Positions 7,201 to 27,224 are shown, numbered from the stretch's first letter. The stretch is 32,027 nucleotides of DNA from Pirellulales bacterium (GCA_040397625.1 JBBAVQ010000002.1:5112-37138), one strand, 5' to 3'. Translations and numbers: made by a program. The notes: generated from the sequence alone by a model not told the origin.

Positions 7201-7529
7201 GCGGCGAGCCGCACGAGCCTCTCGGGATCGTCGGGGGAGCGATCGCCGGTCTCGGTAAGGATCCGCGTAGCGATCGCCCGAGCCACTTCGGCCCATGCCT
7301 TGTCAGTCACGGCTGCCTGCTCGATGCCCGCGAGGGCCTCGGCGGCTGTCTTCGGCTTCCCCTCGTTCAGGGCCTCTTCGACCCGCTTCCAGGCCTCGGC
7401 CCGGGGACCGGGAGGCAGATCGTCTGCACGAGTTTGGTGACGCGGCACGGTCAATGCTCCGGAGATGGCGAGGCCACACAAAAAGGCGGCGAGTCGAACC
7501 GCACATGGGAAAACATTCCTCGCTCGCAT
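1266..7529 (-). CDS. Alpha-2-macroglobulin family protein (2087 aa), secreted, lacking the canonical CxEQ thioester
   Basis: The N-terminus is a signal peptide (MRARNVFPCAVRLAAFLCGLAISGA). A roughly 450-aa helical N-domain comes next, then a long beta-sandwich (MG-like) region. A Gly/Ala/Met/Arg-rich bait-like linker precedes the conserved block 'NLAETAFFLPTLVSG...TTWQFKALAHD'. A helical TED-like region follows ('RNGDGGWPWFPGG'), then a C-terminal 'LELADHRPSLTEPVD' MG8-like block. The thioester position reads 'LPCLMEEN' instead of CxEQ. Confidence 0.9.
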   Translation of the reverse strand: MRARNVFPCAVRLAAFLCGLAISGALTVPRHQTRADDLPPGPRAEAWKRVEEALNEGKPKTAAEALAGIEQAAVTDKAWAEVARAIATRILTETGDRSPDDPERLVRLAAAITKAPAETQDVLEAIQANWTWGYFQMNRWRFQQRTTGGADAADLARIGEWDLPTIVAEIRRRFVAAVEKGEGLKTFKVGDWSAILTKGTMPDAYRPTVWDVVIRDAIEFASSGERGLTAPEDAFELAATSPALGTADEFRAWKPDTDQAVTDADSPIVQAAALYRSLLDVHAADADRTAFLAADLDRILWAAGVAVDAGDITVADRKADALESFLSQAGDHEIAAQARHALAEIARGHDDLVEARAIAAQGVERHPDSPGGKLCRNLIKEIESRELALATEEAWAAPWPVIRVTYRNLTKVHLKLAKADWPARLRAGRPSPAWLDDEDRATIPGLPAIKTVAIDVPATADFHSRHHDVPVTAFEPESLEPGAYWVIASHDPGFGEKDNVVHATLVWITRLAIVAGQASPNGPKGESLAGHVVDIASGEPIAGATVTIFVREQQGNPTGFVERRSATTDADGRYELAAEAEREILLVAKATLDGKTHVVPAEPVNVWRRQRPQADTSIVLVTDRGIHRPGQTVFYKGIIGSFDHDRRDYHALAKRATTVTLRDANGREVAKAEHVTNDFGSFHGSFPIATGALPGQWMLLAETEGFNGGVAVRVEEYKRPKFQVNLAPPTETVRLGEAVALSGTATTYTGLPVAGAKVSWRVERRMRLPLWCRWCFPWLPFGNEGRKIARGTEVTGADGTFTIRFPAVPDRSVPKAALPVFTYEVVADVTDPSGETRSDSRNVAAGYTDVEAAIERSDWQAVAAGVKDDQGQPAAPVTLTLVTRSLDGSPRAAAGRLAIHALVQPATVDRGDLLGDPQTPPPARPFGTARKAKAAAAAGDLRPAPAPKPADPDTWQLGEALVTREAATDAKTGQAEVTATLPAGIYRAIFTVPGKEGVPEVRTESTFTVIDPTADRDRVKRPFALAAEKDSVEAGREFQAILGTGYDRGRALVEISRAGRVLKRFWTEPGRTQWPVSVAVADEDRGGFTVTAWLVRDGRLHRQQKTVQVPWTNKKLAITWERFTRKLEPAAKEVWRAKITSVADPLAGPEAPAVAEMLALLYDQSLDAIAEHQFPGAGLQGLFRSEWGAADVAFTNSANTFNGVRGGWDLAFDEVEISYRELRPPFGSPTRGGWARGGFGGGGGIQMMRMRRGGPVMAAAAAPASAPAEQGSFAFDQEIRRKDATAGDSMQAAADRHGGEGQPSANAGRGSPPPPRTNLAETAFFLPTLVSGSDGIVTIEFTLPDTLTTWQFKALAHDAALRSGTLVDECVSAKDLMVEPLMPRFLREGDIVQIPVKVSNTSTGRFAGDVSFALADARTGDSRDALIEGPRQQAFDLAAGESKPLVFTVKVADGTDVLRYTATGVTTSSAKRAADGEEALVAVLPRRVPVTNTVPITIRGPGERRVKLDRLLQSAGTEIRSESFVVQAASNPAWYGVLALPCLMEENDESIETLFARLYANAYARHVATADPRIAKIFEQWKGTAALESPLEKNTDLVKTLLAETPWVHDAVDEREARARIGLLFDATRAENEVRSAFERLESLRNGDGGWPWFPGGRSCDPVTLAIIAGFGRLRANGVAIDVQPAVAAIPWLDGRLREEKLRAKDIDDPVLTPTGAYALFARSFFKGDAPPEGEAADAIRWGLAVGKKSWMKLGRRSQGHVALALHRSGDRDTARSIIDSLKQRAVDADVKPGSEKDSWQGMWWRDQHPAWWSWASAPIETQSVMIEAFDEVAGDADAVDAMKAWLLSQKRTSRWPGSMATADAVGALLGRGKDLLGSSELVAVTVGGEAVKPANVEAGTGFFEERFVRREILPAMGEVVMKKPDAGLAWGGVHWQYLDDIANVPAAGREELAIDKQLFVKRFTKAGPVLEPATVVEPGDELVVRLVVTSDRDYEYLELADHRPSLTEPVDVLSGWRFGDGAAWYLAVRDASTQFFFERLPRGTHVFEYSLRAAHRGTASSGFARIQSRYAPEFSAHSAAVPLEVK

Positions 7530-7753: not shown

Positions 7754-10700
7754 ATGCGTCGATCCGTGGTCACTCTCGCCCCTGTGCTTGCGGTTTTCGC
7801 CGCCGCATCATCTTTTGCGGGCGACGTGTCCTTCAATAAGGACATTCGTCCGCTCCTGGTCGAGAACTGCTTCTCGTGCCACGGTGCAGATTCGGCCTCA
7901 CGACAGGCCGGCCTCCGTCTCGATCGCCGCGACGAGGCGGTTGATTCGGGGGCAGTCGTTCCTGGTGATCCCGATTCGAGCGTCATGCTCGACCGCATCT
8001 TCTCCGACGATCCGGAAGAGGTGATGCCGCCCCCATCGACGAAGAAGGTGCTCACGGCGGACCAGAAGGAACTCCTCAAACGCTGGATCGCCGAGGGCGC
8101 CGAATACCAGCCGCACTGGTCCTTCATTCCACCGGCACGTCCCGAGCCACCGGCCGTGAAGAACGAGGCGTGGGTCAGAAACCCGCTCGACCGGTTCATC
8201 CTCGCCAGGCTCGAAGCAGAGGGCCTCGCTCCTGCCCCCGAAGCCGATCGCCGCACGATCGCCAGAAGGGTCGCGCTCGATCTCACCGGCCTGCCCCCCG
8301 ACCCAGCGGTGGTCGATGCCTTCGTCGCCGACCCCGCCCCCGACGCCTACGAACGGCTCGTCGATTCGCTCCTGGCGAGCCTCGAATGGGGCGAGCACCG
8401 CGGCCGCTACTGGCTCGACTACGCCCGATACGCCGACACGCACGGCATCCACATCGACAACTTTCGCGAAATGTGGACCTACAGGCAGTGGGTGGTGGCC
8501 GCATTCAATCGCAACCTGCCGTTCGACCAGTTCACGATCCTGCAGCTGGCCGGCGACCTCGTGCGGGATCACGGTCCCAACGCCTCCCCCGATCAGATCC
8601 TCGACAACCGGATCGCCAGCGGGTTCAACCGCTGCAACATCACGACAAGCGAAGGGGGGGCGATCGACGAGGAGTATCTCGTGCTCTACGCGCGGGATCG
8701 CACCGAGACCACCTCGGCCGTCTGGATGGGGCTGACGACCGGTTGTGCCGTCTGCCACGACCATAAGTTCGATCCGCTCTCACAGCGCGAGTTCTACGAA
8801 CTCGCCGCCTTCTTCAATAACACGACGCAGAAGGCGATGGACGGAAACGTCCGAGACACGCCACCGATCCTCACGGTGCCGGCGCCCGAGGACAGGCTGC
8901 GGTTCGCGGCGCTCGAGAGCGAGATCCCTGCCGCGAAAGCCGCCGTGGAGGCACGCAAACAGACCGCCCGCCCCGAGTTCGACTCATGGCTGAGGGGGCT
9001 CGTGCCCGAGTCGCTCCCCGCCAATCCGCTCCGCGAGACGCCGCTGGTGCACCTGCCCCTTGCTGAAGGCACGGGCTCGACGACCCACGTCTCCCTGCTC
9101 GGCAAGGAGACCGACGTGCCGCTCACGGCGGCCACAACATGGCAGGCCGGGCCGCAGCGGTCGCCTGCGATCCTGCTCGACGGCAGGGCGGCCGAACTCC
9201 CCAGCGGCGACTTCGAGTGGAACGAGCCGTTCAGCGTGACGTTCTGGCTGCGGCCCTCCGGCACCTCCAAGCCGGGTTCCGTGATCGCCCGAATGGGCGA
9301 GGCACCTGCGAACCAGGGCTGGGATGTCTGGCTCGACGACCGGCGGGTCGCCATGCACCTATCCCACTCCTGGCCGGAGCACGGCCTCAAGGTCGTGGCC
9401 GGCGAGCAACTCCCCGCCGATGCGTGGACGTTTGTCGCAGTCACCTACGACGGCTCCGGCAAGCCGGAGGGCGTGGCGATCTCCTATAACGGCACCTCGC
9501 GGAAAACGGAGGTGAAGAAGCAGTCGCTCGGCGAGAAGTCGATCAAGACTTCGGCAGGCCTGACCATCGGCAGCCGGTCGAAGGGCGGTATGCTCCGCGG
9601 CGTCGGCCTCGCGGACCTCTCAATCTGGGGCCGAGCACTGCCGGTAGGCGAGGTTGCCGCGTTCTGGAAGGCACACCGGCTTCGCGACCTGGTGGCCCTG
9701 CCGGCGGACGAGCGGCCGCCGGCGGCGGGCGATCTCTACGACGGGTGGCTGACCGAGGACGAGCAGCACAAGACACTGTCTGCCGCCATGGGCACGCTCG
9801 AAGCCGAGATGGCGGAGATCAAGAAGCGGGGCACGATCGCGCACGTGATGCACGAGAAGCCCGAGATGGCGAAGGCCCACGTGCTCGAGCGTGGCGAATA
9901 CGACAAGCGGAAAGATGAAGTTCAGCCGGAGACGCCCGACATCCTGCCGGCATTTCCCGAGTCGCTGCCGAAAAACCGGCTCGGGCTCGCCCAATGGCTG
10001 CTGCTGCAGGACCATCCGCTCACCACCCGCGTGACGGTGAATCGATTCTGGCAGGAGGTCTTTGGAACCGGTCTCGTGAGAACGAGCGGTGACTTCGGGA
10101 TCACCGGCGAGCTTCCCAGCCACCCCGAACTCCTCGACTGGCTGGCGGTCGAGTTCCGCGAGACGGGCTGGGACGTCAAGCGGCTCTTCCGGCTAATCGT
10201 GACCAGTGCCACCTACCGGCAGGCCGCCATCGCCACGCCCGAGAAGCTCGCCAAGGATGCGGCCAACCGGCTTCTCTCCCGCGGGCCGCGGTTTCGCATG
10301 GATGCCGAGATGGTTCGCGACCACGCCCTCGCCGCCAGCGGCCTCTTGGTCCGACAGCTCGGCGGGCCGAGCGTGCGGCCCTACCAGCCCGAGGGCGTCT
10401 GGGAGGCTGTCGCCATGGACGGCAGCGACACGCGAAACTACGTCCGTGACAAGGGCGAGGGGCTCTACCGTCGCAGCATGTACTGGTTCTGGAAGCGGTC
10501 GGCACCGCCGGCGTCGATGGACATCTTCAACGCCCCGTCGCGGGAAAACTGCTGCGTGAAGCGGGAGCGGACCAACACGCCACTGCAGGCGCTGGTGACG
10601 CTCAACGATCCGCAGTTCGTGGAGGCGGCGCGGGCCCTCGCCGACCGGGCGCTGGAGCTCGCGGCCGGCAACGATGACCAGCGGTTGGAGTTCATCGCCG

Positions 10701-10918
10701 AGCGGCTCCTGGCACGGCGACTCTCACCCGACGAACTGGCTGTCGTGAAGAAGTCACTCGCCGACCTCGTCGCCTGGTACACCGCGCACCCCGACGAGGC
10801 GAAGCAGCTGATCACCGTCGGCGACTCGAAGCCCCGGGCAGCCGACGCGGTGCAACTCGCCAGCTGGACGATGCTCACCAACGAGCTCATGAACCTCGAC
10901 GAGGTCCTCTGCAAATGA
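7754..10918 (+). CDS. PSCyt1 + PSCyt2(DUF1549) + LamG-like insert + PSD1(DUF1553) protein (A1), predicted c-type heme binding
   Basis: A GAGGAG lies 6 nt upstream of the ATG, and the signal peptide is MRRSVVTLAPVLAVFAAASSFAG. An N-terminal CxxCH 'CFSCHG' sits at 7868-7882. The DUF1549 block is 'NPLDRFILARLEAEGLAPAPEADRRTIARRVALDLTGLPP', with a second CxxCH 'CAVCHDHKFDP' at 8744-8758. A concanavalin/LamG-like segment reads 'FSVTFWLRP...WTFVAVTYDG...LSIWGRAL'. DUF1553 blocks are 'ELLDWLAVEF...VKRLFRLIVTSATYRQ' and 'FNAPSRENCCVKRERTNTPLQAL'. Confidence 0.9.
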   Translation: MRRSVVTLAPVLAVFAAASSFAGDVSFNKDIRPLLVENCFSCHGADSASRQAGLRLDRRDEAVDSGAVVPGDPDSSVMLDRIFSDDPEEVMPPPSTKKVLTADQKELLKRWIAEGAEYQPHWSFIPPARPEPPAVKNEAWVRNPLDRFILARLEAEGLAPAPEADRRTIARRVALDLTGLPPDPAVVDAFVADPAPDAYERLVDSLLASLEWGEHRGRYWLDYARYADTHGIHIDNFREMWTYRQWVVAAFNRNLPFDQFTILQLAGDLVRDHGPNASPDQILDNRIASGFNRCNITTSEGGAIDEEYLVLYARDRTETTSAVWMGLTTGCAVCHDHKFDPLSQREFYELAAFFNNTTQKAMDGNVRDTPPILTVPAPEDRLRFAALESEIPAAKAAVEARKQTARPEFDSWLRGLVPESLPANPLRETPLVHLPLAEGTGSTTHVSLLGKETDVPLTAATTWQAGPQRSPAILLDGRAAELPSGDFEWNEPFSVTFWLRPSGTSKPGSVIARMGEAPANQGWDVWLDDRRVAMHLSHSWPEHGLKVVAGEQLPADAWTFVAVTYDGSGKPEGVAISYNGTSRKTEVKKQSLGEKSIKTSAGLTIGSRSKGGMLRGVGLADLSIWGRALPVGEVAAFWKAHRLRDLVALPADERPPAAGDLYDGWLTEDEQHKTLSAAMGTLEAEMAEIKKRGTIAHVMHEKPEMAKAHVLERGEYDKRKDEVQPETPDILPAFPESLPKNRLGLAQWLLLQDHPLTTRVTVNRFWQEVFGTGLVRTSGDFGITGELPSHPELLDWLAVEFRETGWDVKRLFRLIVTSATYRQAAIATPEKLAKDAANRLLSRGPRFRMDAEMVRDHALAASGLLVRQLGGPSVRPYQPEGVWEAVAMDGSDTRNYVRDKGEGLYRRSMYWFWKRSAPPASMDIFNAPSRENCCVKRERTNTPLQALVTLNDPQFVEAARALADRALELAAGNDDQRLEFIAERLLARRLSPDELAVVKKSLADLVAWYTAHPDEAKQLITVGDSKPRAADAVQLASWTMLTNELMNLDEVLCK

Positions 10919-11013
10919 AAAAGGTGACAGCCACCATTTGTCTGAAGACCCCGGCCGAAGGCCGGGGCCGTGTCGCCTTCAGCGACCGGCAAATGGTGGC
11001 TGTCACCTTTTTC
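10917..11013. repeat. 97-nt nested inverted repeat (perfect 24-bp outer arms, inner GC hairpin) filling the A1-B1 intergenic gap
   Basis: The left arm GAAAAAGGTGACAGCCACCATTTG (10917-10940) is the exact reverse complement of the right arm CAAATGGTGGCTGTCACCTTTTTC (10990-11013). The 49-nt spacer contains CCCCGGCC-GAA-GGCCGGGG (10949-10967), itself flanked by CTGAAG/CTTCAG (10942-10947 / 10977-10982). The stem has an A5 tract on its 5' side and a T5 tract on its 3' side. Confidence 0.9.
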
Positions 11014-11027
11014 GAGGAGAATGACGC

Positions 11028-12515
11028 ATGAATCCTCCGATCCGCTCGCCCCTCGATGAGCTGGGGCTGAACCTCACGCGCCGCCGGTTCTTCGAGCAGG
11101 GCAGCCACCTGCTCGGAGGCGCGGCGCTCGCGGCGCTCGCCGCCCAGGGTGCCGCCCGCGGCGCGGCCTCCGCGAGCCCGGCCTTCGACCGGGTGGCCAA
11201 CGCGATTGGCCCGCACTTCGCCCCGAAGGCGAAGCACGTCATCTATCTCCACATGGTCGGTGGCCCGCCGCAGCAGGATCTCTTCGACTACAAGCCGAAG
11301 ATGGACGACTGGTACGACAAGGACCTTCCCGAGAGCATTCGTAACGGCCAGCGGCTCACCACGATGACGTCGGGTCAGTCGCGGTTTCCGATCGCGCCCT
11401 CGAAGTTCAAGTTCATCCAGCACGGCGAGTGCGGGATGTGGATGTCGGAACTCCTGCCCTGGACCGGGAAGATGGCCGACGAGATGTGCTTCATCCGGAG
11501 CATGCACACCGAGGCCATCAACCACGAACCGGCGATCTGCTACATGCAGACCGGCAACCAGATCGTCGGCCGGCCGTGCCTCGGCTCGTGGACGAGCTAC
11601 GGCCTCGGCAGCCTCAACAGCGACCTGCCCACGTTCGTCGTGCTCGTGGCTCGGTCATCGAAGCCAGAACAGCCCCAGGCGATCGGTGCCCGGCTCTGGT
11701 CGAGCGGCTTTCTGCCGGGCGAATACGCGGGTGTGAGCTTCCGGAGCGCCGGCGACCCGATCCTCTACATCAACAACCCGCCGGGCGTGTCGGATGCCGT
11801 CCGCCGCACCACGCTCGACGGCCTCCAAGCCTTGAACCAGCGGACCCTCGAGCAGATCGGCGACCCGGAAACGCGGACGCGAATCGCCCAGTACGAGATG
11901 GCCTTCCGCATGCAGGCGAGCGTGCCCGAACTCACCAGCATCGCGAACGAATCGGCGAGCACGCTCGCCCTTTACGGCGACCAGGTGAAGGACCCGGGCT
12001 CGTTCGCCAACTCCGTCCTGATGGCGCGGCGGATGGTGGAGCGGGGCGTGCGGTTCGTGCAGATCTACCTCAACCACTGGGATACGCACGGCAACGTCGT
12101 CGGCCGCCTCACCAACGGCTGCCGCGACATCGACCAGCCCTGCTACGGACTCATGCAGGATCTCAAGGCCCGCGGCCTGCTCGACGAGACGCTCATCATC
12201 TGGGGGGGCGAGTTCGGCCGCACGGTCTACTCGCAGGGCGGTCTCTCGAAGGAGAACTACGGCCGCGACCATCATCCGCGATGTTTCACGATGTGGATGG
12301 CCGGCGGCGGCGCGAAGGGGGGCACCATCCACGGCGAGACCGACGACTTCTCCTACAACATCGTGAAGGATCCGGTGCACATCCGGGACTTCCACGCCAC
12401 GGTCTTGCACCTGCTCGGTTTCGATCACGAGCGGTTCACCTACCGTCACCTCGGCCTCGACCAGCGGCTCACCGGCGTCGAGCATGCCCGCGTGGTGACG
12501 GACCTGCTCGCCTGA
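11028..12515 (+). CDS. DUF1501 domain protein (B1), Tat-signal, alkaline-phosphatase/sulfatase-superfamily-like
   Basis: A GAGGAGA lies 7 nt upstream of the ATG. The twin-arginine motif is 'LTRRRFFEQGSHLLGGAALAALAAQGAA'. DUF1501 signature blocks are 'AKHVIYLHMVGGPPQQDLFDYKPK' and 'GRDHHPRCFTMWMAGGGAKGGTIHGETDDF...VHIRDFHATVLHLLG'. Confidence 0.9.
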   Translation: MNPPIRSPLDELGLNLTRRRFFEQGSHLLGGAALAALAAQGAARGAASASPAFDRVANAIGPHFAPKAKHVIYLHMVGGPPQQDLFDYKPKMDDWYDKDLPESIRNGQRLTTMTSGQSRFPIAPSKFKFIQHGECGMWMSELLPWTGKMADEMCFIRSMHTEAINHEPAICYMQTGNQIVGRPCLGSWTSYGLGSLNSDLPTFVVLVARSSKPEQPQAIGARLWSSGFLPGEYAGVSFRSAGDPILYINNPPGVSDAVRRTTLDGLQALNQRTLEQIGDPETRTRIAQYEMAFRMQASVPELTSIANESASTLALYGDQVKDPGSFANSVLMARRMVERGVRFVQIYLNHWDTHGNVVGRLTNGCRDIDQPCYGLMQDLKARGLLDETLIIWGGEFGRTVYSQGGLSKENYGRDHHPRCFTMWMAGGGAKGGTIHGETDDFSYNIVKDPVHIRDFHATVLHLLGFDHERFTYRHLGLDQRLTGVEHARVVTDLLA

Positions 12516-12545
12516 TCGGGTGTGTTTTCACAGATTCGCTGCGCG

Positions 12546-12635
12546 ACCACGCGTGGTGATCAGGCGCAGGAGGGGGATATACTGCTCGTTCGCCATCATG
12601 CGGTGATGATCGCGCCGTTCCGAACACCGTTCCGA
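12546..12635. promoter_or_regulatory. Candidate operator elements upstream of the SGNH/cytochrome gene: a perfect 12-bp palindrome and a tandem 9-bp direct repeat
   Basis: ACCACGCGTGGT (12546-12557) is its own reverse complement. CCGTTCCGA occurs twice (12615-12623 and 12627-12635) with a 12-bp period, 27-47 bp upstream of the ATG at 12662. Confidence 0.25.
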
Positions 12636-12661
12636 GATAGCGTTCTACGCGGGAGTCACTG

Positions 12662-15600
12662 ATGCCCTGTTCGTTCTCGTCTCGTGGCCCCAATGGTGAT
12701 CCCAGTCGCGGCCCCAGCCTTGGACGCGTCGCGGGAGCCGCCGTCGTCGTCCCATTGCTGCTGGCCCTCGCCGCCACGCGTCTGCCCGGAGCCGACGACA
12801 AGGACAAGCCTCCCGAGAGGGATCCGTTCACCACGGCCCGTGAGATCCTGGCCATCCCGCCGCGTCCTGCCCGCCCGGCGCTGCCTGCCAGCCAACTCCC
12901 GCTCGAGCTGCTCGACGGCGAGCGGATCGCCTTTCTCGGCAACTCCACCGCCGAGCGGATGAACCTCTTCGGCCACTTCGAGGCCCTCCTCCACCAGCGT
13001 TTTCCCGGCAAGCACCTCGTGGTCCGCAACTTCGCCCGCCCCGCCGACGAGGTCGGCAATCGCCAACGTCCGGGCGACTACACGAAGCTCGACGATCCCG
13101 TGGCCGCCTTCGGTGCCGACACGTACCTGCTCTTCTTCGGATTCAACGAGTCGTTCGCCGGGCCGGGGGGCGTGGCCAAGTTCACAGCCGACTACGAGAA
13201 GCTCCTGGATGAACTGGCACATCAGTATCCCCGTGACGACACCAAGGCCGCCCCGCGGTTTGTGATCGTGTCGCCGATCGCGGTCGAGGCCAGCGGCAGC
13301 CCCTACCTGCCCGACGCCGACGCCCAGAATGGTTCGCTCGCCCTCTACCGCGACGCAGCCAAGGCCGTCGCCGAGAAGCGGGGCCTGGCCTTCGTCGACC
13401 TCTTCGACGCCACCCGGAAGGAGTTCGCGGCGCAGCCAGGCCTCCAGCACACGATCAACGGCTGCCACGTCAACGAGGCCGGCGACGCCTTCGTCGGCGG
13501 CCTGCTCGACCGGTCCCTGTTCGGCGGCCCGGCCTCGAGCCAGCTCTCCACGGCCGCCTTCGAGAAGCTCCGCGCCGCGGTCAACGACAAGTCGTGGGTG
13601 CATCTGCAGGACTACCGGATGGTCAACGGCTGGTATGTCTACGGCGGTCGCCGCACGTTCGACACGGAGACCTTCCCGAGGGAATACGCCAAGATCCGCG
13701 GCATGGCGGCCGTCCGCGATGCCCGCGTCTGGAACATCGCCGAGGGCAAACCCGTCGCCGGCACGCCCGACGACTCCGCCACGGGTGAGCTGATCACGCC
13801 GCAGACCCGATTCGGTGAACCCGGGCAGGCCTACAGCGAGAACAAGGAAGGTGGGCCGACGATCCTGCCGCCCGCCGACCTGATCAAGACCTGCACGGTA
13901 CCCCCCGGCTTCGAGATGAAGCTGTTCGCCGACGAGACGAAGTTTCCCGAAATCGCCAAGCCCGTGCAGCTGGCCTTCGATTCGAAGGGCCGCCTCTGGG
14001 TCTCGACGATGCCGAGCTACCCGCAGTGGCAGCCGGGCGATCCGCCGCCGTCCGACAAGCTCGTGATCCTGGAAGACACCGACAAGGATGGCACCGCCGA
14101 CACGAGCACGGTGTTCTACGACAAGCTCCATTGCCCGACCGGCTTCCAGTTCTTCGACGGCGGCGTGCTCGTGATGGACCAGCCGCGGATGCTCTGGCTC
14201 AAGGACACCGACGGCGACGACAAGGCCGACGTCGTGGTGCACGTGCTCGACGGCTGGGCCACGGAAGACACCCATCACACCGCCGGCGCCTTCGAGGCCA
14301 GCCCCGGCGGCCTGCTCCACATGCTCGAGGGCGTGGCGATGAGCACGGCCGTCGAGACGCCGTGGGGTCCGTTTCGTAACTACGGCTCGTCAGGTGCCTA
14401 CGTCCTCGACCCACGGACATGGAAGCTTCGCCACTTCAAGACGCCCGGCTACGGCAACCCCTGGTGCTACGTCTTCAACGAGTGGGGCCAGGGCATCTGC
14501 GGCGACGGCACCGGCGCATCGCAGCACTGGGACACGCCCCTCTCGGGCGCCCAATACGGTGGCCGCAAGGGGCTCAACGCGGTGTTCGACACCGAGAAGA
14601 TGCGGCCCGTCGTGGGGAGCGACTACCTCCGCACGAGGCAGTTCCCCGACGACGTCCAGGACCAGTTCATCTACGCCTGCGTGATCAACATGAACGGCAT
14701 CCCGCGGTGGCACATGTCGGACGACGGCGCCGGCTACAAGGGCGAACGGGTGCGGCACGACCCCGCCGACCCCACCACGCCCTTCGATCTCCTCAAGAGC
14801 ACCGACAAGCACTTCCGGCCGGTCGATCCGCAGATCGGGCCCGACGGGGCGCTCTGGTTCGGGGACTGGGCCAACCCGCTGATCGGCCACATGCAGTACA
14901 GCCAGCGTGACCCAAACCGCGACCACGTGAAGGGGCGGATCTACCGGCTCTTCTACACGCAGAAGCCGCTGGTCACTCCCGAGACGCAGTTCGGCAAGTC
15001 GACCCGGGAGGTCCTGGATCAGCTCAAGGCGGCCGAATGGCGGACGCGGTATCGCGCCCGGGCTGACCTCCAATCCCGCTCCCGCGACGAGGTGCTCTCT
15101 GCGGCGCGGCAGTGGCTCGGCACGATCGGCTCCGATCCCCATGCCGACCGCCTGAAGACCGAAGTTCTCTGGCTCCAACAGAGTTTTCATGCCGTGGATC
15201 CAGGCCTCCTCGGCGACCTCCTGCAGGCCGCCACGCCCGAGGCCCGGGCCGCGGCCACGAGGGTGCTCGCCGACGAGCGAGACCAGATTCCGGGCGCCAT
15301 CTCCCTGCTGACGGCCAAGGCCACCGATGCCAATCCGCGTGTCCGCTGCGAGGCAGTCCGTGGCCTGAGCTTCGTTCCCAACCTCGACGCCATGAAGGCG
15401 GTCATCGCCGCGGCCGAGGTGGAGCCGGCCGACCGCTACGTTGACTACACATGCGATGCGGCCCTGGGAGCGAACATCGGCGTCTGGAAGGGCGAGTACG
15501 ACGCGGGCCGCTTCGTGACGGACGATTCGCGTGCCGAGAGCATCATCGACAGCGTTCTCGGCCTGGAACGGAAGGCCCAGGAGATCGTCCCCTATCTCGC

Positions 15601-16081
15601 GATCCTCACCAGCAAGGATCCGCAGTCCGAGGAGGCGCGAAACAAGGCGATGCAAGCCCTCGCCGACGTCAAGGGAGGCGACCGCCAAAACGGCAAGGTC
15701 GTGTTTCGCCGCGTCTGCATCGCCTGCCACAAGATCGGCAAAGAGGGATCGGACTTTGGGCCGCACATGGACGACGTCGGCAAGCGGCTCTCGTCGTACA
15801 AGCTCGTGGAGTCGATCATCCATCCCAACGCGGAGGTCGCCGAGAAGTATCTCTCCACGTCGGTCCTCACGAGCGACGGCCGAAGCATCGTTGGTCTGCT
15901 CGTCAGCGAAACGCCGGAGGAGGTTGTGATCTTCGACGGTAAGGAGAAGAAGACGGTCGCCGTGGCGGACATCGACGAGCGGACGCAACTCCGGCAGAGC
16001 AGCATGCCCGAAGGCCTCGCGGGCACGCTCTCGCCCAACGAGTTTCTCGACGTGATCGTGTTCCTGAAGAGCCTCAAGTAA
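12662..16081 (+). CDS. Multidomain PVC-type heme-binding protein: SGNH/GDSL-like hydrolase + membrane-bound-dehydrogenase-like beta-propeller + HEAT repeats + C-terminal cytochrome c
   Basis: A GGGAG lies upstream of the ATG, and the N-terminus has a hydrophobic segment 'VAGAAVVVPLLLALAA'. SGNH blocks are 'IAFLGNSTAERM', 'LLFFGFNESFAG' and 'INGCHVNEAGD'. The central region 'LAFDSKGRLWVSTMPSYPQW...VILEDTDKDGTAD...GGVLVMDQP...LKDTDGDDKAD' is typical of the PVC dehydrogenase-like domain. A HEAT-like segment reads 'NPRVRCEAVRGLSFV'. The cytochrome c motif 'CIACHKIGKEGSDFGPHM' (CxxCH at 15716-15730) has a distal 'LRQSSMPEGL' Met. Confidence 0.85.
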   Translation: MPCSFSSRGPNGDPSRGPSLGRVAGAAVVVPLLLALAATRLPGADDKDKPPERDPFTTAREILAIPPRPARPALPASQLPLELLDGERIAFLGNSTAERMNLFGHFEALLHQRFPGKHLVVRNFARPADEVGNRQRPGDYTKLDDPVAAFGADTYLLFFGFNESFAGPGGVAKFTADYEKLLDELAHQYPRDDTKAAPRFVIVSPIAVEASGSPYLPDADAQNGSLALYRDAAKAVAEKRGLAFVDLFDATRKEFAAQPGLQHTINGCHVNEAGDAFVGGLLDRSLFGGPASSQLSTAAFEKLRAAVNDKSWVHLQDYRMVNGWYVYGGRRTFDTETFPREYAKIRGMAAVRDARVWNIAEGKPVAGTPDDSATGELITPQTRFGEPGQAYSENKEGGPTILPPADLIKTCTVPPGFEMKLFADETKFPEIAKPVQLAFDSKGRLWVSTMPSYPQWQPGDPPPSDKLVILEDTDKDGTADTSTVFYDKLHCPTGFQFFDGGVLVMDQPRMLWLKDTDGDDKADVVVHVLDGWATEDTHHTAGAFEASPGGLLHMLEGVAMSTAVETPWGPFRNYGSSGAYVLDPRTWKLRHFKTPGYGNPWCYVFNEWGQGICGDGTGASQHWDTPLSGAQYGGRKGLNAVFDTEKMRPVVGSDYLRTRQFPDDVQDQFIYACVINMNGIPRWHMSDDGAGYKGERVRHDPADPTTPFDLLKSTDKHFRPVDPQIGPDGALWFGDWANPLIGHMQYSQRDPNRDHVKGRIYRLFYTQKPLVTPETQFGKSTREVLDQLKAAEWRTRYRARADLQSRSRDEVLSAARQWLGTIGSDPHADRLKTEVLWLQQSFHAVDPGLLGDLLQAATPEARAAATRVLADERDQIPGAISLLTAKATDANPRVRCEAVRGLSFVPNLDAMKAVIAAAEVEPADRYVDYTCDAALGANIGVWKGEYDAGRFVTDDSRAESIIDSVLGLERKAQEIVPYLAILTSKDPQSEEARNKAMQALADVKGGDRQNGKVVFRRVCIACHKIGKEGSDFGPHMDDVGKRLSSYKLVESIIHPNAEVAEKYLSTSVLTSDGRSIVGLLVSETPEEVVIFDGKEKKTVAVADIDERTQLRQSSMPEGLAGTLSPNEFLDVIVFLKSLK

Positions 16082-16105
16082 GCACGGGGCATCGCAGAAC
16101 GCCCC

Positions 16106-18682
16106 ATGAAGCCCCAAGCGAATCGTGGATCCCGCTGCGAACAAGCCCAACGCCGTGAGGCGTGGGGAGCGGCCAGGAACGGCGCAGCGCCCAACGTGTC
16201 GCGCCCGACGGCTGACGCCGTTCGGCTTGTACGCGATCACGCCGAAGCGGCGATCGCCCGCACGATTCGCCCTGGTGCATCGGCCTGGCTCTTGGTGATC
16301 ATCGCCGCCTTGAGCACCCCGGCCCGGGGAGTCGATTTCGCGCACGAGGTGGTGCCGATCCTGCGGAAGCACTGCGGCGAGTGCCACACCGGCGACGCCC
16401 GACAGGGAGGCTTCTCGCTCAACACCCGCGAAGACCTGCTCACCGGCGGCGACTCCGGCACGCCCGGAGTCGTCCCGGGCAGTTCGACCACCAGCGAACT
16501 CATGGCCCGGATCACGAGCGATGATCCTGACGATCGAATGCCGAGCGAGGGCGAGCCGCTGCCGCCCGACGCGATCGCCGTCCTGAAAGCCTGGATCGAC
16601 GAACAGGCCCCATGGGAGCCTGGCTTCGCCTTCAAGGGAACGGCGTGGGAGCCCCCGCTCGCCCTGCGCGAGGTCGTGCTGCCGCCGGCCGCGGACGGCC
16701 GCACCAACCCTGTCGACCGCGTGGTCGATGCCGCGCTTGCGGCGCACGGCGTGCCGCGGCCGCCCCGGTGCGACGACCGCACCTTCATCCGACGGGCGAG
16801 CCTCGATCTCGTCGGGCTGCTGCCCGGCCCCGACCGGGTCGAGGCCTTCGTGGCCGACACCGATCCCGGCAAGCACGCGCGGCTCGTCCGCGACCTGCTC
16901 GCCGACGATGTCGCCTACGCCGACCACTGGCTCACGTTCTGGAACGACCTCCTCCGCAACGACTACACGGGCACGGGCTACATCACCGGCGGCCGGCGGC
17001 AGATCACCACCTGGCTGCACCGGGCGCTCGCCGCCAACGTGCCTTTCGACCGGTTCGTGCGGGAACTCGTCTCACCGGCCGACGAGTCTCGCGGCTTCAT
17101 CGACGGCATCGTCTGGCGGGGCACCGTGAACGCCAGCCAGGCCGTGCCGATCCAGTTCGCCCAGAACGTCGGCCAGACGTTCCTCGGCATCAATCTCAAG
17201 TGCGCCAGCTGTCACGACAGCTTCGTCGATCGCTGGACGCTCCGGCAGACCTATGACCTCGCCGCGATCGCCGCCGAGCAGCCGCTCGAACTCGCCCGCT
17301 GCGACAAGGCGACCGGCGTGATGGCGACCCCGGCATGGATCTTCCCCAACCTGGGGCAGATCGACGCCTCGTTACCGTCAGCGGCACGGCTCGCGCAGCT
17401 CGCCGCGCTCATGACGCAGCCCGGCAACGGCTGGCTGTCGCGGACGCTCGCCAACCGCTTCTGGCACCGGCTCATGGGCCGCGGCATCGTGCATCCCGTC
17501 GAGAGCCTCCGCACGCAACCCTGGAGTGAAGATCTGCTCGACCTGCTGGCCGGCGACCTCGTGTCACACGGCTGGGACATGCGGCACCTGCTCGAGACGA
17601 TCTGCACGTCGGAGGCCTATGCCGCCGTTACGCCGGCCGTCGAGGGCCTGCCCCGGGGAGGCGACTACGTATTCCGTGGCCCGCTGCCCCGACGGATGAC
17701 CGCCGAGCAGTTCACCGACGCCGTCTGGACGCTCGCGGGCACGGCTCCCGCGAAGCCCGACGCCGAGGTGGTGCGGTTCGACCAGGATTCCACGCCGTCT
17801 GATCTCCATCCGGCGGCAACGTGGATCTGGAGCAACGAGGCAGCCGAGTCGCCCCCGGAAGAATCGCTGACATTCAGCAAGGATTTCGAGCTGCCGCAGC
17901 CCGCCGTGCATGCGGCCGTGGTTCTCGCCGCCGACAACTCCGCCACCCTCTTCATCAATGGCAAGTCGGTGGTCACGGGCAACGACTGGCAGCAACCGGT
18001 GATGGCCGTGGCCACGGCCGACCTCAAGGAGGGCGCGAACACCGTGATCGTCACTGCCGCAAATGCGGCAGCCGGCGGACCGGCCGCCCTTCGCATGGAG
18101 ATTCGCTGCCGGCTTGCCGACGGCACCATGCAGTCGATCGTCACGGATGGTTCGTGGAAATGGACGAAGGCCAAGCCCGATGCGAAGGGCCAGTTTCCGA
18201 AAGACACGAAGCCGACCGACTGGGCACCGGCCACGGTCGTCGCGAATCAGGCCACGTGGGCCACGGCCGACGCCCCCTTCGCCGCACACGTGATCGCGGC
18301 CACCGCGCCGGCGTCGCTGCCGATGGTTCGGGCCGGGCTCGTGAAGGCGACGCCGCTGATGGCCGCCCTCGGCCGGCCGAACCGCGACCAGGTCGTCACC
18401 AGCCGCCCATCCGACCTGACGACGCTGGAGGCGATCCTGTTGGCCAACGACCGGTCACTCGCCGACGAGATCGCCAAGGGAGGCAGCCGCATCCTCGCAA
18501 AGCACGGCCCCGATCCCGATCGAGTCGCTTCGTGGATCTTTACGGCCGCCCTCTCCCGTCCGCCAACGGCGGACGAGGCGGCGGTCGCCCGGGATCTGCT
18601 TGGGGCCGCGCCGACCGCGGAAAGCGTGGCTGATTGCCTCTGGAGCGTGGTGATGCTGCCAGAGTTCCAGTTGGTGCGATAA
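16106..18682 (+). CDS. PSCyt1 + PSCyt2(DUF1549) + galactose-binding-like insert + PSD1(DUF1553) protein (A2)
   Basis: CxxCH 'CGECHTG' sits at 16373-16387. The DUF1549 block is 'NPVDRVVDAALAAHGVPRPPRCDDRTFIRRASLDLVGLLP', with a second CxxCH 'CASCHDSF' at 17201-17215. DUF1553-like blocks are 'RRMTAEQFTDAVW' and 'LGRPNRDQVVTSRPSDLTTLEAILLAN'. The start is uncertain: the first ATG (16106) gives a roughly 55-aa charged leader before the hydrophobic signal 'ASAWLLVIIAALSTPARG', so an internal GTG start (for example near 16196) is possible. Confidence 0.85.
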   Translation: MKPQANRGSRCEQAQRREAWGAARNGAAPNVSRPTADAVRLVRDHAEAAIARTIRPGASAWLLVIIAALSTPARGVDFAHEVVPILRKHCGECHTGDARQGGFSLNTREDLLTGGDSGTPGVVPGSSTTSELMARITSDDPDDRMPSEGEPLPPDAIAVLKAWIDEQAPWEPGFAFKGTAWEPPLALREVVLPPAADGRTNPVDRVVDAALAAHGVPRPPRCDDRTFIRRASLDLVGLLPGPDRVEAFVADTDPGKHARLVRDLLADDVAYADHWLTFWNDLLRNDYTGTGYITGGRRQITTWLHRALAANVPFDRFVRELVSPADESRGFIDGIVWRGTVNASQAVPIQFAQNVGQTFLGINLKCASCHDSFVDRWTLRQTYDLAAIAAEQPLELARCDKATGVMATPAWIFPNLGQIDASLPSAARLAQLAALMTQPGNGWLSRTLANRFWHRLMGRGIVHPVESLRTQPWSEDLLDLLAGDLVSHGWDMRHLLETICTSEAYAAVTPAVEGLPRGGDYVFRGPLPRRMTAEQFTDAVWTLAGTAPAKPDAEVVRFDQDSTPSDLHPAATWIWSNEAAESPPEESLTFSKDFELPQPAVHAAVVLAADNSATLFINGKSVVTGNDWQQPVMAVATADLKEGANTVIVTAANAAAGGPAALRMEIRCRLADGTMQSIVTDGSWKWTKAKPDAKGQFPKDTKPTDWAPATVVANQATWATADAPFAAHVIAATAPASLPMVRAGLVKATPLMAALGRPNRDQVVTSRPSDLTTLEAILLANDRSLADEIAKGGSRILAKHGPDPDRVASWIFTAALSRPPTADEAAVARDLLGAAPTAESVADCLWSVVMLPEFQLVR

Positions 18683-18701
18683 TGAAGCAGGAGCATCCGA
18701 C

Positions 18702-20126
18702 ATGAAAAGCCGCCGCCAGTTCCTCGAGTGCCTGGCCGCCGCTGCGACCACCACGCTCGCCCTGCCGGAGCCACGGGCCCGCGGGTCGGAGCAGGGCCCC
18801 CGCATCGTGCATCCTGCGCCCCGGGCCGACGCGATGATCGTCCTCTGGATGGCCGGCGGCATGGCGGCTCCGGACACGTTTGACCCGAAGCGATACAAGC
18901 CGTTCGAGCCCGGCCTTGCGGTCGCCGACGTGATCAGCACGTTCCCCGCAATCCCGACCGCGATCGACGGCGTGCAGATCTGCAACGGCCTGCCCGAGAT
19001 CGCCAAGGTGCTCGACCGGGCAACGCTCGTCCGCTCGCACGTCCAGCCGGATCTCGGCAGCATCCTCCACTCGCGGCACCAGTACCACTGGCACACGGGC
19101 TACGTCCCTCCGCAGACCGTGGCCTGCCCGCACATCGGCGCGTGGATGGCCCGCGTGCTCGGGCCGCGCAACCCCGTCATGCCCGCGTTCGTGAACATCG
19201 GCCAGCGGCTCGAGGGAGTGGGCGAGAACGAAGAGATCAAGGCGTTCACCACCGCCGGCTTCTTCGGCAGCGAGTTCGGGCCGATGAACCTTCCCTACCC
19301 AGAACAGGCGGCCTTGGCCGTACGCCCCCCGGAGGGCATGTCCGCGGAGCGGTTCGCCGATCGCTACGCGGCCATGAAGCGGCTCACGGCGGCGTCGGCA
19401 CACCGCGAGTTCACAAGCGACTTCCACCAAGAATCGATGCTCCGCAGCATCGACAATGCCCACCGGCTGCTCGGTGCCAAGGAGCGGGAGGCCTTCGACA
19501 TCACGCGCGAACCGAAGGAAGTTCAGGAGCGGTACGACACCGGCCGCTTCGGCCGCGGCTGCCTGCTCGCGCGGCGGCTCGTCGAGAACGGGGCCCGCTA
19601 CGTCGAGGTGACCACGGAATACGTTCCCTTCGTCCACTGGGACACGCACGAGAACGGCCACGAGCGGGTGGCGGCCCTCCACGCCGAGATCGACCGCCCC
19701 ATCGCGGCCCTCGTTCGCGATCTCGACGAGCGGGGCCTGCTCGACCGCACGCTGGTGGTGATCGCCAGCGAGTTCAGCCGCGACATGATCACCGAAGGCC
19801 AGCCCGGCTCGGATGCCAAAGACCAGGCAAGTTCGCCGAAGGACTTCCTGCAGCTGCCGGCCCACTACGGCCAGCACCGTCACTTCACCGCCGGCTCGAG
19901 CGTGGTGCTCTTCGGAGGCGGGATGAAGCGAGGGTTCGTCTACGGAAAAACCGCCGACGAGCGGCCCTGCGTCGCGATCGAGAATCCTGTCTCGATCACC
20001 GACCTCCACGCGACCTTCTTCACCGCCATGGGCATCAGCCCGAAGACGGTCTTCGACATCGAGGATCGCCCCTTCTACGCGACGCTCGACGGCAAGGGCC
20101 GCGCCGTGGAGTCGTTGTTCGCGTAA
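18702..20126 (+). CDS. DUF1501 domain protein (B2), Tat-signal
   Basis: An AGGAG lies 8 nt upstream of the ATG, 19 bp after the A2 stop. The twin-arginine motif is 'KSRRQFLECLAAAATTTLALP'. DUF1501 blocks are 'ADAMIVLWMAGGMAAPDTFDPKRYKP' and 'VVLFGGGMKRGFVYGKTADE...ITDLHATFFTAMG'. It diverges from B1 in the 'GRDHH' region, which reads 'HYGQHRHF'. Confidence 0.9.
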   Translation: MKSRRQFLECLAAAATTTLALPEPRARGSEQGPRIVHPAPRADAMIVLWMAGGMAAPDTFDPKRYKPFEPGLAVADVISTFPAIPTAIDGVQICNGLPEIAKVLDRATLVRSHVQPDLGSILHSRHQYHWHTGYVPPQTVACPHIGAWMARVLGPRNPVMPAFVNIGQRLEGVGENEEIKAFTTAGFFGSEFGPMNLPYPEQAALAVRPPEGMSAERFADRYAAMKRLTAASAHREFTSDFHQESMLRSIDNAHRLLGAKEREAFDITREPKEVQERYDTGRFGRGCLLARRLVENGARYVEVTTEYVPFVHWDTHENGHERVAALHAEIDRPIAALVRDLDERGLLDRTLVVIASEFSRDMITEGQPGSDAKDQASSPKDFLQLPAHYGQHRHFTAGSSVVLFGGGMKRGFVYGKTADERPCVAIENPVSITDLHATFFTAMGISPKTVFDIEDRPFYATLDGKGRAVESLFA

Positions 20127-20261
20127 CAGCTTCCAGCGAGGTAGGCGGAGGGATCGGGACGAGGATGGCGAGCGTCGGCTATCCTGCCGCTGGCGAGCCA
20201 ACTCGGCCCGTCCCGCAGCCGGGTTTTCCCCGTTGGATGCGAGCCGCGGTATCCTGCCACG

Positions 20262-21938
20262 ATGGTCTGGGAACACACCTACGATCCGCTCGGCTCACCG
20301 ATCCTCTCCACACTCGTGGCGGCCGTGCCCCTCGTGGTGCTGCTCGGCCTGCTCGCCTTCGCGCGGTGGTCGGGCATGCAGGCGGCGGTGGCCGGGCTGA
20401 TCACCGCACTCGCGATCGCGATCGGCGTTTTCGGTATGCCAGCCGATGCGGCAATGGCGGCCGCCGCGCACGGCGCGGTGTTCGGGCTGTTTCCGATCGG
20501 CTGGATCATCGTGACAGCGATGTTCCTCTACCGGCTCTGCGTCGAGGCCGGCGCGCTCGACGTCATGAAGCGATCGGTGATGGGGCTCTCCGCCGACCAC
20601 CGCCTCCAGGCCCTCCTGATCGCGTTTTCCTTCGGTGCGTTTCTCGAGGGCGCGGCCGGGTTTGGGGCCCCCGTGGCGATCTCCGCCGCGCTGATGGTGG
20701 GCGCCGGGTTTCCGGCGCTGGAGGCGGCATGCCTGGCACTCCTGGCCAACACGGCACCCGTGGCCTTCGGTGCGCTCGGCACGCCGATCATCACGCTCGC
20801 GAAGGTCACCGGCCTCGACGAACGGGCCATCTCGGCGATGGCCGGGCATCAGTTGCCGCTCTTCTCGCTCGTCGTGCCGGCCTGGATGGTCTGCACGATG
20901 GCGGGCTGGCGGGGCCTCGCCGGCGTCTGGCCGCCGGTGCTCGTCTGCGGCGGCACGTTCGCCGCGGTGCAGTATGCGATGGCCACCTTCGTCGGAGCCG
21001 CGCTCGTCGATGTGGTCGGGGGCGTGGCGAGCCTCGTAGCCCTCGCCGCGTTTCTGCACTGGTGGAAGCCCGCGTCGATCTGGCGCCATGGTCATGGCTG
21101 GACCGATCGCGTCGCGACTTCGTCGATCGGGGGTGATTCCGCTGCGCGGATCGCCTGGGCATGGATGCCGTGGGTGTTTCTGTCCCTGGCCGTCTTCACG
21201 TGGGGCCTGCCCGCGGTCAAGGCGACGCTCGACGGAAAAGACACGCCTCCCCGCCTGTCGCGTGTCACCGTGGCGCCGGAACTCCCGATCCCGTTCCTCG
21301 ACGGCCGGGTCGCAAAAGTCCCCCCGGCCACCCGCGAGTCGCGGGAGATCGAGCGGGCCGTATATCGGTTCAACTGGCTCTCGGCGGCAGGCACCGGCAT
21401 CCTGGCCGCGGCGCTCGTGTCGATCCCGTGGCTCGGCATCTCCTGGCGGCGGGCCCTGGCGATCTGGCTTGAGAGTCTTTGGTCGCTCGGCGAGTCACTC
21501 GCCACGATCGCCGCCATGCTCGCGCTCGCCTTCGTCACGCGATACTCCGGCACCGATGTCACGCTCGGCCTCGCGCTCACCGCCACCGGCGCGGCCTACG
21601 CCTTCTTCGCGCCGCTCCTCGGCTGGCTGGGCGTGGCCCTGACCGGCTCCGACACCTCGAGCAACGCCATGTTCGGCAGCCTGCAAAGGGTCACGGCGGA
21701 GCAGCTTGGGCTCGACCCGCTGCTCATCTGCACCGCCAACAGCACCGGCGGCGTGATGGGGAAGATGATCGACGCCCAGAGTATCGTCGTCTCCGCCACG
21801 GCCACGGGCACGCACCGCCGCGAGGGCGAGATCCTCCGGCGGGTCTTTCCGCACTCACTCGCGCTCGCCGCCCTGATGGGATTGCTCGTCTGGCTTCAGG
21901 CCGGGCCGCTCTCGTGGATGGTGCCGTCGGCCCGCTGA
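20262..21938 (+). CDS. lctP: L-lactate/glycolate permease (LctP family)
   Basis: The 558-aa polytopic protein begins 'MVWEHTYDPLGS', compared with 'MNLWQQNYDPAGN' in E. coli LldP. It also has 'FGLFPIGWIIVTAMFLYRL' and 'FSFGAFLEGAAGFGAPVAISAALMVGAGF...LLANTAPVAFGALGTPI', which nearly matches the LldP/GlcA signature region. Confidence 0.9.
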   Translation: MVWEHTYDPLGSPILSTLVAAVPLVVLLGLLAFARWSGMQAAVAGLITALAIAIGVFGMPADAAMAAAAHGAVFGLFPIGWIIVTAMFLYRLCVEAGALDVMKRSVMGLSADHRLQALLIAFSFGAFLEGAAGFGAPVAISAALMVGAGFPALEAACLALLANTAPVAFGALGTPIITLAKVTGLDERAISAMAGHQLPLFSLVVPAWMVCTMAGWRGLAGVWPPVLVCGGTFAAVQYAMATFVGAALVDVVGGVASLVALAAFLHWWKPASIWRHGHGWTDRVATSSIGGDSAARIAWAWMPWVFLSLAVFTWGLPAVKATLDGKDTPPRLSRVTVAPELPIPFLDGRVAKVPPATRESREIERAVYRFNWLSAAGTGILAAALVSIPWLGISWRRALAIWLESLWSLGESLATIAAMLALAFVTRYSGTDVTLGLALTATGAAYAFFAPLLGWLGVALTGSDTSSNAMFGSLQRVTAEQLGLDPLLICTANSTGGVMGKMIDAQSIVVSATATGTHRREGEILRRVFPHSLALAALMGLLVWLQAGPLSWMVPSAR

Positions 21939-26195: not shown

Positions 26196-26235
26196 GCGGT
26201 GGAAGTGTAGGCGCCAATGCTTCACACTGCCGCTC

Positions 26236-27222: not shown

Positions 27223-27224
27223 CC

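Follow-up and report, generated by a model that had tools for sequence, protein, structure and literature searches.

PSCyt/PSD1–DUF1501 gene pairs as candidate functional units of a putatively mosaic planctomycete locus

Introduction

The PSCyt1, PSCyt2 and PSD1 domains were described by Studholme (2004). Kamneva et al. (2012, PMC3542564) reported that DUF1501 genes, often with a twin-arginine translocation (Tat) signal, adjoin genes that combine PSCyt1, PSCyt2 and PSD1, in some cases with Laminin_G_3 or F5_F8_type_C domains, and He et al. (2017, PMC5615132) described PSCyt2 beside DUF1501, with Laminin_G_3 or Bac_rhamnosid_N acting as a carbohydrate-binding module (“CBM”) and sulfatases as neighbours. 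In the literature on DUF1501, DUF1553, DUF1549 and PSCyt we found no later functional study. Here we analyse two gene pairs of this type, A1–B1 and A2–B2, in a 32,027-nucleotide stretch of DNA from a Pirellulales bacterium (GCA_040397625.1, JBBAVQ010000002.1:5112-37138; hereafter the window). They belong to a run of six same-strand genes that also includes C, encoding a multidomain cytochrome c protein, and P, encoding a permease. An initial annotation of the window had presented the run as a candidate undescribed periplasmic system. That description does not stand, as the pairing, the Tat motif of DUF1501 proteins and the Laminin_G_3 and Bac_rhamnosid_N inserts are all published. The pairs match the published module in two-gene layout, domain order, Tat motif, insert types, paralogous expansion, sulfatase neighbours and unknown function, and nothing essential differs. 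Relative to that module, a very conserved A1–B1 orthogroup whose genes are coupled through an ATGA overlap is modestly new; further additions are its clade-specific tie to a gene of the TIGR02604 family and arrays with as many as three A–B modules (L167).

Two other described arrangements are close to parts of the locus. The DUF1800–DUF1501 operon pair of Proteobacteria (Goncalves et al. 2016, PMC5122149) likewise places a large helical protein of unknown function ahead of a Tat-signal DUF1501 gene, although DUF1800, unlike A, lacks a cytochrome c domain, and neither hhalign nor relaxed Pfam scans revealed significant homology between DUF1800 and DUF1549/DUF1553. The TIGR02604/TIGR02603 “PVC-type heme-binding CxxCH proteins” share DUF7133/TIGR02604, HEAT repeats and a C-terminal CxxCH with C. 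For one of them, Lac161_ORF7 (AGW45552; TIGR02604, HEAT and cytochrome c), a single in-vitro assay showed glucose release from lactose (Km 1.8 mM), on which its report as a beta-galactosidase is based; later work treats TIGR02604 as a putative family of beta-propeller glycoside hydrolases. C differs from Lac161_ORF7 in having an extra N-terminal SGNH esterase domain.

Results

A1 and B1 form a conserved gene pair

A comparison anchored on B1 covered 80 metagenome loci with B1 identities of 56–88%, about 60 of them informative. In almost all of these ~60 loci a gene of the A1 type lies directly upstream of the B1 orthologue, and in half of the relatives compared at the junction (10 of 20) the stop codon of A1 and the start codon of B1 share an ATGA. 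The identities of A and B also co-vary across 14 modules (Spearman 0.84). All three observations support the initial proposal that A and B act as a pair. A candidate natural A–B fusion in one locus (L108) was rejected, the long open reading frame (ORF) proving to be the B frame, open through A in another frame. B1 is strongly conserved, with 74–95% identity among orthologues in the top 120 clusters; DUF1501 as a whole comprises 23,988 clusters at 50% identity.

Only one B1-anchored locus (L092) contains an orthologue of C, and every C-family match in this set occupies the slot directly after B1. At five loci (L151, L155, L157, L163 and L164) the gene directly after B1 encodes a membrane protein with DUF2231, a cytochrome c domain of the PSCyt1 type and leucine-rich repeats; it is a candidate membrane electron partner of the A–B pair. 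Five distant A1–B1 pairs have a GntR/FCD regulator directly upstream on the same strand (Table 1). Organic or sugar acids are the usual signals of such regulators. Classical sulfatases stand beside distant A1–B1 orthologues in 9 of 83 loci, and a DUF480 gene lies near B1 orthologues in four. Linkage, coupling and distribution thus identify the A–B pair as the conserved unit, and the six-gene layout as lineage-specific.

At the junction of A1 and B1 in the window, an insertion of 112 nt lies exactly at the ancestral ATGA overlap and is bordered by ATGA on both sides. It is palindromic (Table 1), and the corresponding RNA is predicted to fold into a hairpin of −76.3 kcal/mol (z = −10.5); with its A-tract and U-tract it resembles a bidirectional terminator. 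The palindromic insertion is missing from all 166 other loci. The Joint Genome Institute (JGI) annotation calls a 38-aa ORF inside it. Promoter and terminator scans performed no better on the window than on shuffled sequence, and an Rfam scan returned no regulatory RNA.

The A proteins are di-haem-motif proteins with variable inserts

Domains were assigned with Pfam and NCBIfam models at their curated cut-offs, which A1 and A2 far exceed, and both proteins have the order PSCyt1, PSCyt2 (DUF1549), PSD1 (DUF1553). In A1 these domains occupy residues 39–94, 144–358 and 741–1000, with Laminin_G_3 at 479–635; in A2, PSCyt1 spans 90–147 and PSCyt2 202–390, and PSD1 is split in two parts. Each protein carries two CxxCH motifs, in A1 CFSCH at residue 39 (in a class-I cytochrome c domain) and CAVCH at residue 331 (in PSCyt2), in A2 CGECH at residue 90 (PSCyt1) and CASCH at residue 366 (PSCyt2). 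Both A1 motifs and a Met91-Pro dipeptide are invariant in 57 homologues, and Met91 is the likely axial haem ligand. A1 and A2 are 32% identical across the N-terminal 356 residues and B1 and B2 27% identical, which marks the two modules as old paralogues. Their paralogy had been noted from the start; a recent tandem duplication of A–B was rejected on the same figures.

The inserts differ in position, lying between PSCyt2 and PSD1 in A1 and within PSD1 in A2. That of A2 is a predicted beta-sandwich of about 175 residues (approximately 556–733) with a weak match to Bac_rhamnosid_N. The window, L002 and L167 carry this insert, and it is cleanly absent from L028 and from L049, the closest relative, so that the domain has been gained or lost among near-identical orthologues. 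As the B2 protein of L049 is 97% identical to that of the window, the A2 insert is an optional add-on and not a determinant of B specificity, which weakens the earlier suggestion that the inserts set substrate specificity.

An AlphaFold2 model of A1, built from a shallow multiple sequence alignment (69–93% identity, plus A2), reached a mean predicted local distance difference test (pLDDT) score of 58.9 and is confident only in the jelly roll and its flanking helices. The jelly-roll region matches lectin-like domains of clostridial neurotoxins. PDB searches with the A1 sequence gave weak cytochrome c matches only. The listed start of A2 places 57 residues ahead of the hydrophobic segment, and relatives align from about residue 55–77; a GTG at 16196 is a possible alternative start, with which the gap between C and A2 would grow to 114 bp.

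The B proteins resemble alkaline phosphatases and sulfatases in fold

Both B proteins are DUF1501 members by Pfam (E = 3.5e-152 for B1 and 4e-77 for B2). A PDB sequence search with B1 found no solved structure. The AlphaFold2 model of B1 (pLDDT 71.6, predicted TM-score 0.78) was compared by Foldseek, which returned LtaS and many S1 sulfatases with a probability of 1.0, at TM-scores of 0.3–0.4 and ~10% identity. A profile of 16 diverse DUF1501 sequences (20–75% identity) matched neighbouring sulfatases in the C-terminal half with an hhalign probability of 95.7%, placing B1 Glu395 on a sulfatase metal-ligand aspartate. Eight polar residues, D151, H166, T175, D352, H354, E395, R398 and H415, are invariant in the 16 sequences, and D352, H354 and E395 would form the metal site.

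B thus shares its core fold with S1 sulfatases and LtaS-type enzymes, and its C-terminal half aligns with them as far as the metal-ligand position, yet it differs in its low similarity, in the active-site motifs weighed below, in Tat export and in an obligate cytochrome partner gene. The structural and profile comparisons indicate an alkaline-phosphatase-superfamily member with a non-canonical active site. Of the earlier proposal that B is a hydrolase, the superfamily fold is upheld; in the absence of the Asp-Asp pair and the sulfatase nucleophile motif C/S-x-P-x-R, the hydrolase chemistry is not established.

C combines esterase, DUF7133 and cytochrome c domains

Pfam places a GDSL/SGNH domain at residues 91–275 of C, DUF7133 from 405, HEAT repeats at 850–924 and cytochrome c from 1010; TIGR02604 and TIGR02603 score 173.6 bits (cut-off 122.2) and 100.3 bits (cut-off 68.15), respectively. 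The SGNH residues Ser95 (in GNS), Gly160, Asn162 and His269 are conserved, with the aspartate of the DxxH motif replaced by Asn266. In the haem site, CIACH at residue 1019, the residues C1019, C1022 and H1023 are invariant in 20 C-family sequences, as is Met1115-Pro, and the cytochrome domain has a match in 7ZS0, a di-haem cytochrome c of anammox origin (E = 9e-28). The initial annotation had read C as a fusion of SGNH, propeller, HEAT and cytochrome c parts; all but the propeller are recovered by the domain models, together with DUF7133, and the propeller is a prediction. Its region gave no Pfam GSDH match and no PDB sequence match, PDB searches with C hitting only the cytochrome, HEAT and GDSL parts. 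It aligned weakly with E. coli YliI (hhalign probability 68.7%, E = 4.5e-5, 193 columns), and the R..D...GPDG.L motif of the pyrroloquinoline quinone-dependent aldose dehydrogenases (YliI/Asd, soluble glucose dehydrogenase family) is shared in this match. A cytochrome c fusion would fit a dehydrogenase of that kind.

Over 1,800 homologues of C were found, and the top 120 clusters match it over the full length at 72–92% identity. Domains of the 3-keto-disaccharide hydrolase, F5/8-C, LamG or cupredoxin type occur in paralogues. The domains and matches of C, with those of its paralogues, indicate carbohydrate-related periplasmic chemistry. Long paralogues (1400–1735 aa, 28–41% identity) also follow directly after the C orthologue or B1 in L092, L030, L026, L158 and L022.

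Gene order around C is variable

A scan of 185,579 species genomes for C yielded 80 loci, onto which the proteins of the window were mapped, and 79 C sequences were placed in a neighbour-joining tree. No link to A1–B1 occurs among C orthologues at 60–68% identity (Gemmataceae, Isosphaeraceae, Planctomycetaceae). In the clade at 69–100% identity, nearly all sub-clades have B1 directly ahead of C, which makes the A1–B1–C linkage ancestral in this Pirellulales-like clade. Exceptions are a sub-clade with a Gfo/Idh/MocA oxidoreductase after C, L022, L028, the paralogue locus L168, and L082, in which a DUF1800–DUF1501 pair without a cytochrome takes the A1–B1 position immediately before a C orthologue of 74% identity. 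Genes for alpha-2-macroglobulin, an HI0933-like protein, a glycosyltransferase-9 (GT9) and BamA are syntenic in the same clade as well, and since these unrelated neighbours are equally syntenic, A1–B1–C is conserved only to the level of general synteny.

Only L002 and L049, with C at least 85% identical, show all six genes in exactly this order. P follows C only in the sub-clade of the window, where it lies 34–69 nt away at loci without A2–B2 (L006, L039, L073); both A2–B2 and the permease are variably present across relatives. In L167, seven genes follow one another on one strand with short gaps in the order A1–B1–C–A3–B3–A2–B2, and in L028 orthologues of A2–B2 lie 3.7 kb upstream of C. The view of A2–B2 as a purely recent insertion was therefore revised, as both cases belong to other lineages. 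The genome of L167 also has a second C paralogue (L168) 50 kb away, beside HI0933 and GT9 genes like those of the right flank of the window. C-family genes thus stand directly beside A1–B1, A2–B2, the A3–B3 pair of L167, the pair of L062 and the DUF1800–DUF1501 pair of L082, and paralogues of C lie by B1 in L091 and L158. A search for the signature of a single operon or polysaccharide-utilisation-type locus found gene content that is not conserved beyond close relatives. The initial picture of one six-gene system is not borne out by these comparisons, and among relatives gene order beyond the A–B pair is largely not conserved, an outcome that the initial annotation had itself named as refuting.

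Layout and flanks of the locus

ORF calls and the Pfam and NCBIfam searches agreed in full with the initial coordinates, gaps, domains, CxxCH motifs and Tat motifs (Table 1). The six genes are separated by 109, 146, 24, 19 and 135 bp in a window of ~68% G+C, and an 11-kb JGI freshwater-metagenome contig of identical sequence holds A1 to B2. P matches Lactate_perm (Pfam, E = 3.6e-151) and, over its full length, TIGR00795 (498 bits, cut-off 341); the LldP and GlcA equivalog models fall below their cut-offs, so its substrate cannot be assigned.

Table 1 Coordinates of features in the window and, where a locus is named, in related loci.
Feature	Position	Strand	Description
Six-gene run	7754-21938	+	ORFs A1, B1, C, A2, B2, P
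A1	7754-10918	+	Sec signal; cytochrome c, PSCyt2/DUF1549, Laminin_G_3 jelly roll, PSD1/DUF1553
A1 insert	9188-9658	+	Laminin_G_3
Palindromic insertion	10917-11013		Perfect 24-nt inverted repeats, 49 nt apart
B1	11028-12515	+	DUF1501 protein with Tat signal (TRRRFF, aa 17-22)
C	12662-16081	+	Signal peptide, SGNH esterase, DUF7133/TIGR02604, HEAT, TIGR02603 cytochrome c
A2	16106-18682	+	PSCyt1, PSCyt2, PSD1 interrupted by beta-sandwich insert
A2 insert	17771-18304	+	Beta-sandwich
B2	18702-20126	+	DUF1501 protein with Tat signal (SRRQFL, aa 3-8)
P	20262-21938	+	LctP-family permease (lactate/glycolate-type); last gene of the same-strand run
Alpha-2-macroglobulin gene	1266-7529	−	Bacterial type, 2087 aa; divergent from A1
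PEP-CTERM/PATR gene	ends at 21953	−	Convergent, beyond P
HI0933-like gene	26217-28556	+	Flavoprotein
GT9 gene	28457-30658	−	Glycosyltransferase-9
BamA gene	29698-31983	−	BamA/Omp85
GntR/FCD regulator, L084	4945-5724		Upstream of distant A1–B1
GntR/FCD regulator, L085	4969-5679		Upstream of distant A1–B1
GntR/FCD regulators, L098, L102, L116			Upstream of distant A1–B1; Schlesneria and a TARA marine contig are among the five loci
L082	6877-13417		DUF1800–DUF1501 pair and C orthologue
L167	3206-19390		A1–B1–C–A3–B3–A2–B2

To the left, the divergent arrangement of the alpha-2-macroglobulin gene and A1 is kept in at least 10 related loci. On the right, the same-strand GT9 and BamA/Omp85 ORFs share ~960 nt; as the GT9 domain begins at residue 414, the start listed for that ORF probably lies too far upstream. 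In the HI0933-like flavoprotein, ~340 additional N-terminal residues have no Pfam match, and since the two parts of the protein match DNA 1.7 kb apart in L005, it may be a fusion or two genes.

Discussion

We consider, with a probability of roughly 50%, that known types of planctomycete module make up a lineage-specific mosaic at this locus, in which the functional units are the two A–B pairs, each a periplasmic two-subunit enzyme. B would be the metal-dependent catalytic subunit, a member of the alkaline-phosphatase/sulfatase superfamily that folds in the cytoplasm and is exported by the Tat pathway. A would leave by the Sec route, receive haem c in the periplasm, and contribute a class-I cytochrome c domain and a second CxxCH within a helical DUF1549/DUF1553 body, its optional lectin-like beta-sandwich serving to tether a glycan-type ligand. 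As the most likely chemistry we infer that the pair would cleave or transfer an anionic ester group, its periplasmic substrates being carbohydrate-derived oligomers that are sulfated, phosphorylated or acidic, and that B would use a nucleophile other than formylglycine, for which Thr175 is a candidate. C would be a separate periplasmic carbohydrate-active protein, with an SGNH de-esterifying domain, a catalytic domain of the beta-propeller type and a cytochrome c electron outlet, and P would import a small hydroxy-acid. In terms of history, A1–B1 is an ancient, strongly conserved orthologous pair that C would have joined in one clade, with P, A2–B2 and, elsewhere, further A–B pairs gained or lost around the A1–B1(–C) core.

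Several points weigh against this interpretation. The formylglycine motif C/S-x-P-x-R is missing from B1 and B2, and the Asp-Asp metal-ligand pair that follows strand 1 in sulfatases is replaced by Gly78-Gly79. Outside the jelly roll, the A1 model is poor at the pLDDT given above. What two haems would do in an ester hydrolase is unexplained, and the presence of C-family genes beside A–B-type modules of several orthogroups hints at more coupling than a mosaic would imply.

That last point is the core of a different explanation, which we regard as unlikely, in which C-family proteins and A–B pairs are redox partners. The cytochromes of A and C would exchange electrons in redox-dependent, not purely hydrolytic, chemistry on a shared sugar derivative; A–B plus C would be the core unit and further A–B modules interchangeable specificity cassettes. 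Orthologues and paralogues of C do adjoin, on the same strand, A–B-type modules of at least five orthogroups, A1–B1 throughout one clade, and in the B1-anchored loci C-family genes are confined to the position directly after B1; all the proteins carry class-I-type cytochrome c domains. However, about 13 independent C contexts have no A–B module within 10 kb, and some 50 B1 loci have no C-family gene. The families are also so large, with one Gemmataceae genome holding 20 TIGR02604 genes and DUF1501 the cluster count given above, that chance adjacency is not negligible, and the estimate of enrichment depends on assumed family densities. A more ambitious form of the idea, which we judge improbable, is that A–B pairs and SGNH–DUF7133–cytochrome c proteins make up an unrecognised recurrent periplasmic system, in which a formylglycine-free Tat enzyme works under the redox control of its di-haem partner.

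A single co-transcribed six-gene pathway, in which the A–B pairs strip a decorated polysaccharide of ester groups with specificity set by their inserts, C deacetylates and oxidises the product, and P imports the resulting hydroxy-acid, is also a long shot. It would account for the shared strand and short gaps, for the full order retained in L002 and L049, for A2–B2 orthologues near C at three separate positions in the tree, and for the carbohydrate-type accessory domains of the locus and the sulfatase neighbours of its relatives. Against it, 13 informative loci of the A1–B1–C clade lack A2–B2 and P is found in only seven, the flanking genes with no evident relation to the pathway are as syntenic at the same divergence, and a terminator-like hairpin (−76 kcal/mol) now separates A1 from B1. 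The A2 insert is dispensable in L049, and distant A1–B1 orthologues lack both C and P, the C orthologue of L092 being the sole one in the B1-anchored set.

We consider very improbable a non-catabolic role for the A–B pairs, as envelope or stress redox sensors or maintenance factors whose neighbours are irrelevant, a view put forward in early papers on the strength of intracellular-membrane association and ECF-sigma linkage: one type of DUF1501 cluster correlates with compartmentalised cell plans (Kamneva et al., PMC3542564), a PSD1/PSCyt2 gene of R. baltica adjoins a stress-induced extracytoplasmic function (ECF) sigma factor, and B1 is unusually conserved for a substrate-specific enzyme, but the A proteins have lectin-like inserts, sulfatases and GntR/FCD regulators of the organic-acid-sensing type stand at related loci, and the dozens of diverged paralogues per genome (41 PSD1 copies in R. 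baltica) fit substrate diversification better than housekeeping.

The DUF1501 and PSCyt/PSD proteins, uncharacterised since 2004, count among the largest such families in Planctomycetes and Verrucomicrobia. The recurrent adjacency of C-family genes and A–B pairs offers a testable, though statistically unproven, hint that TIGR02604-family proteins work with A–B pairs. If the two did form a recurrent system, a de-esterified sugar would be handed to a cytochrome-linked propeller enzyme, and such loci would correspond in planctomycetes to polysaccharide-utilisation loci, A–B pairs being their exchangeable specificity cassettes. The comparison singles out one tractable target within these families: the ancient, highly conserved and translationally coupled A1–B1 orthogroup, which in other lineages is accompanied by a GntR/FCD regulator, by sulfatases or by a membrane cytochrome.

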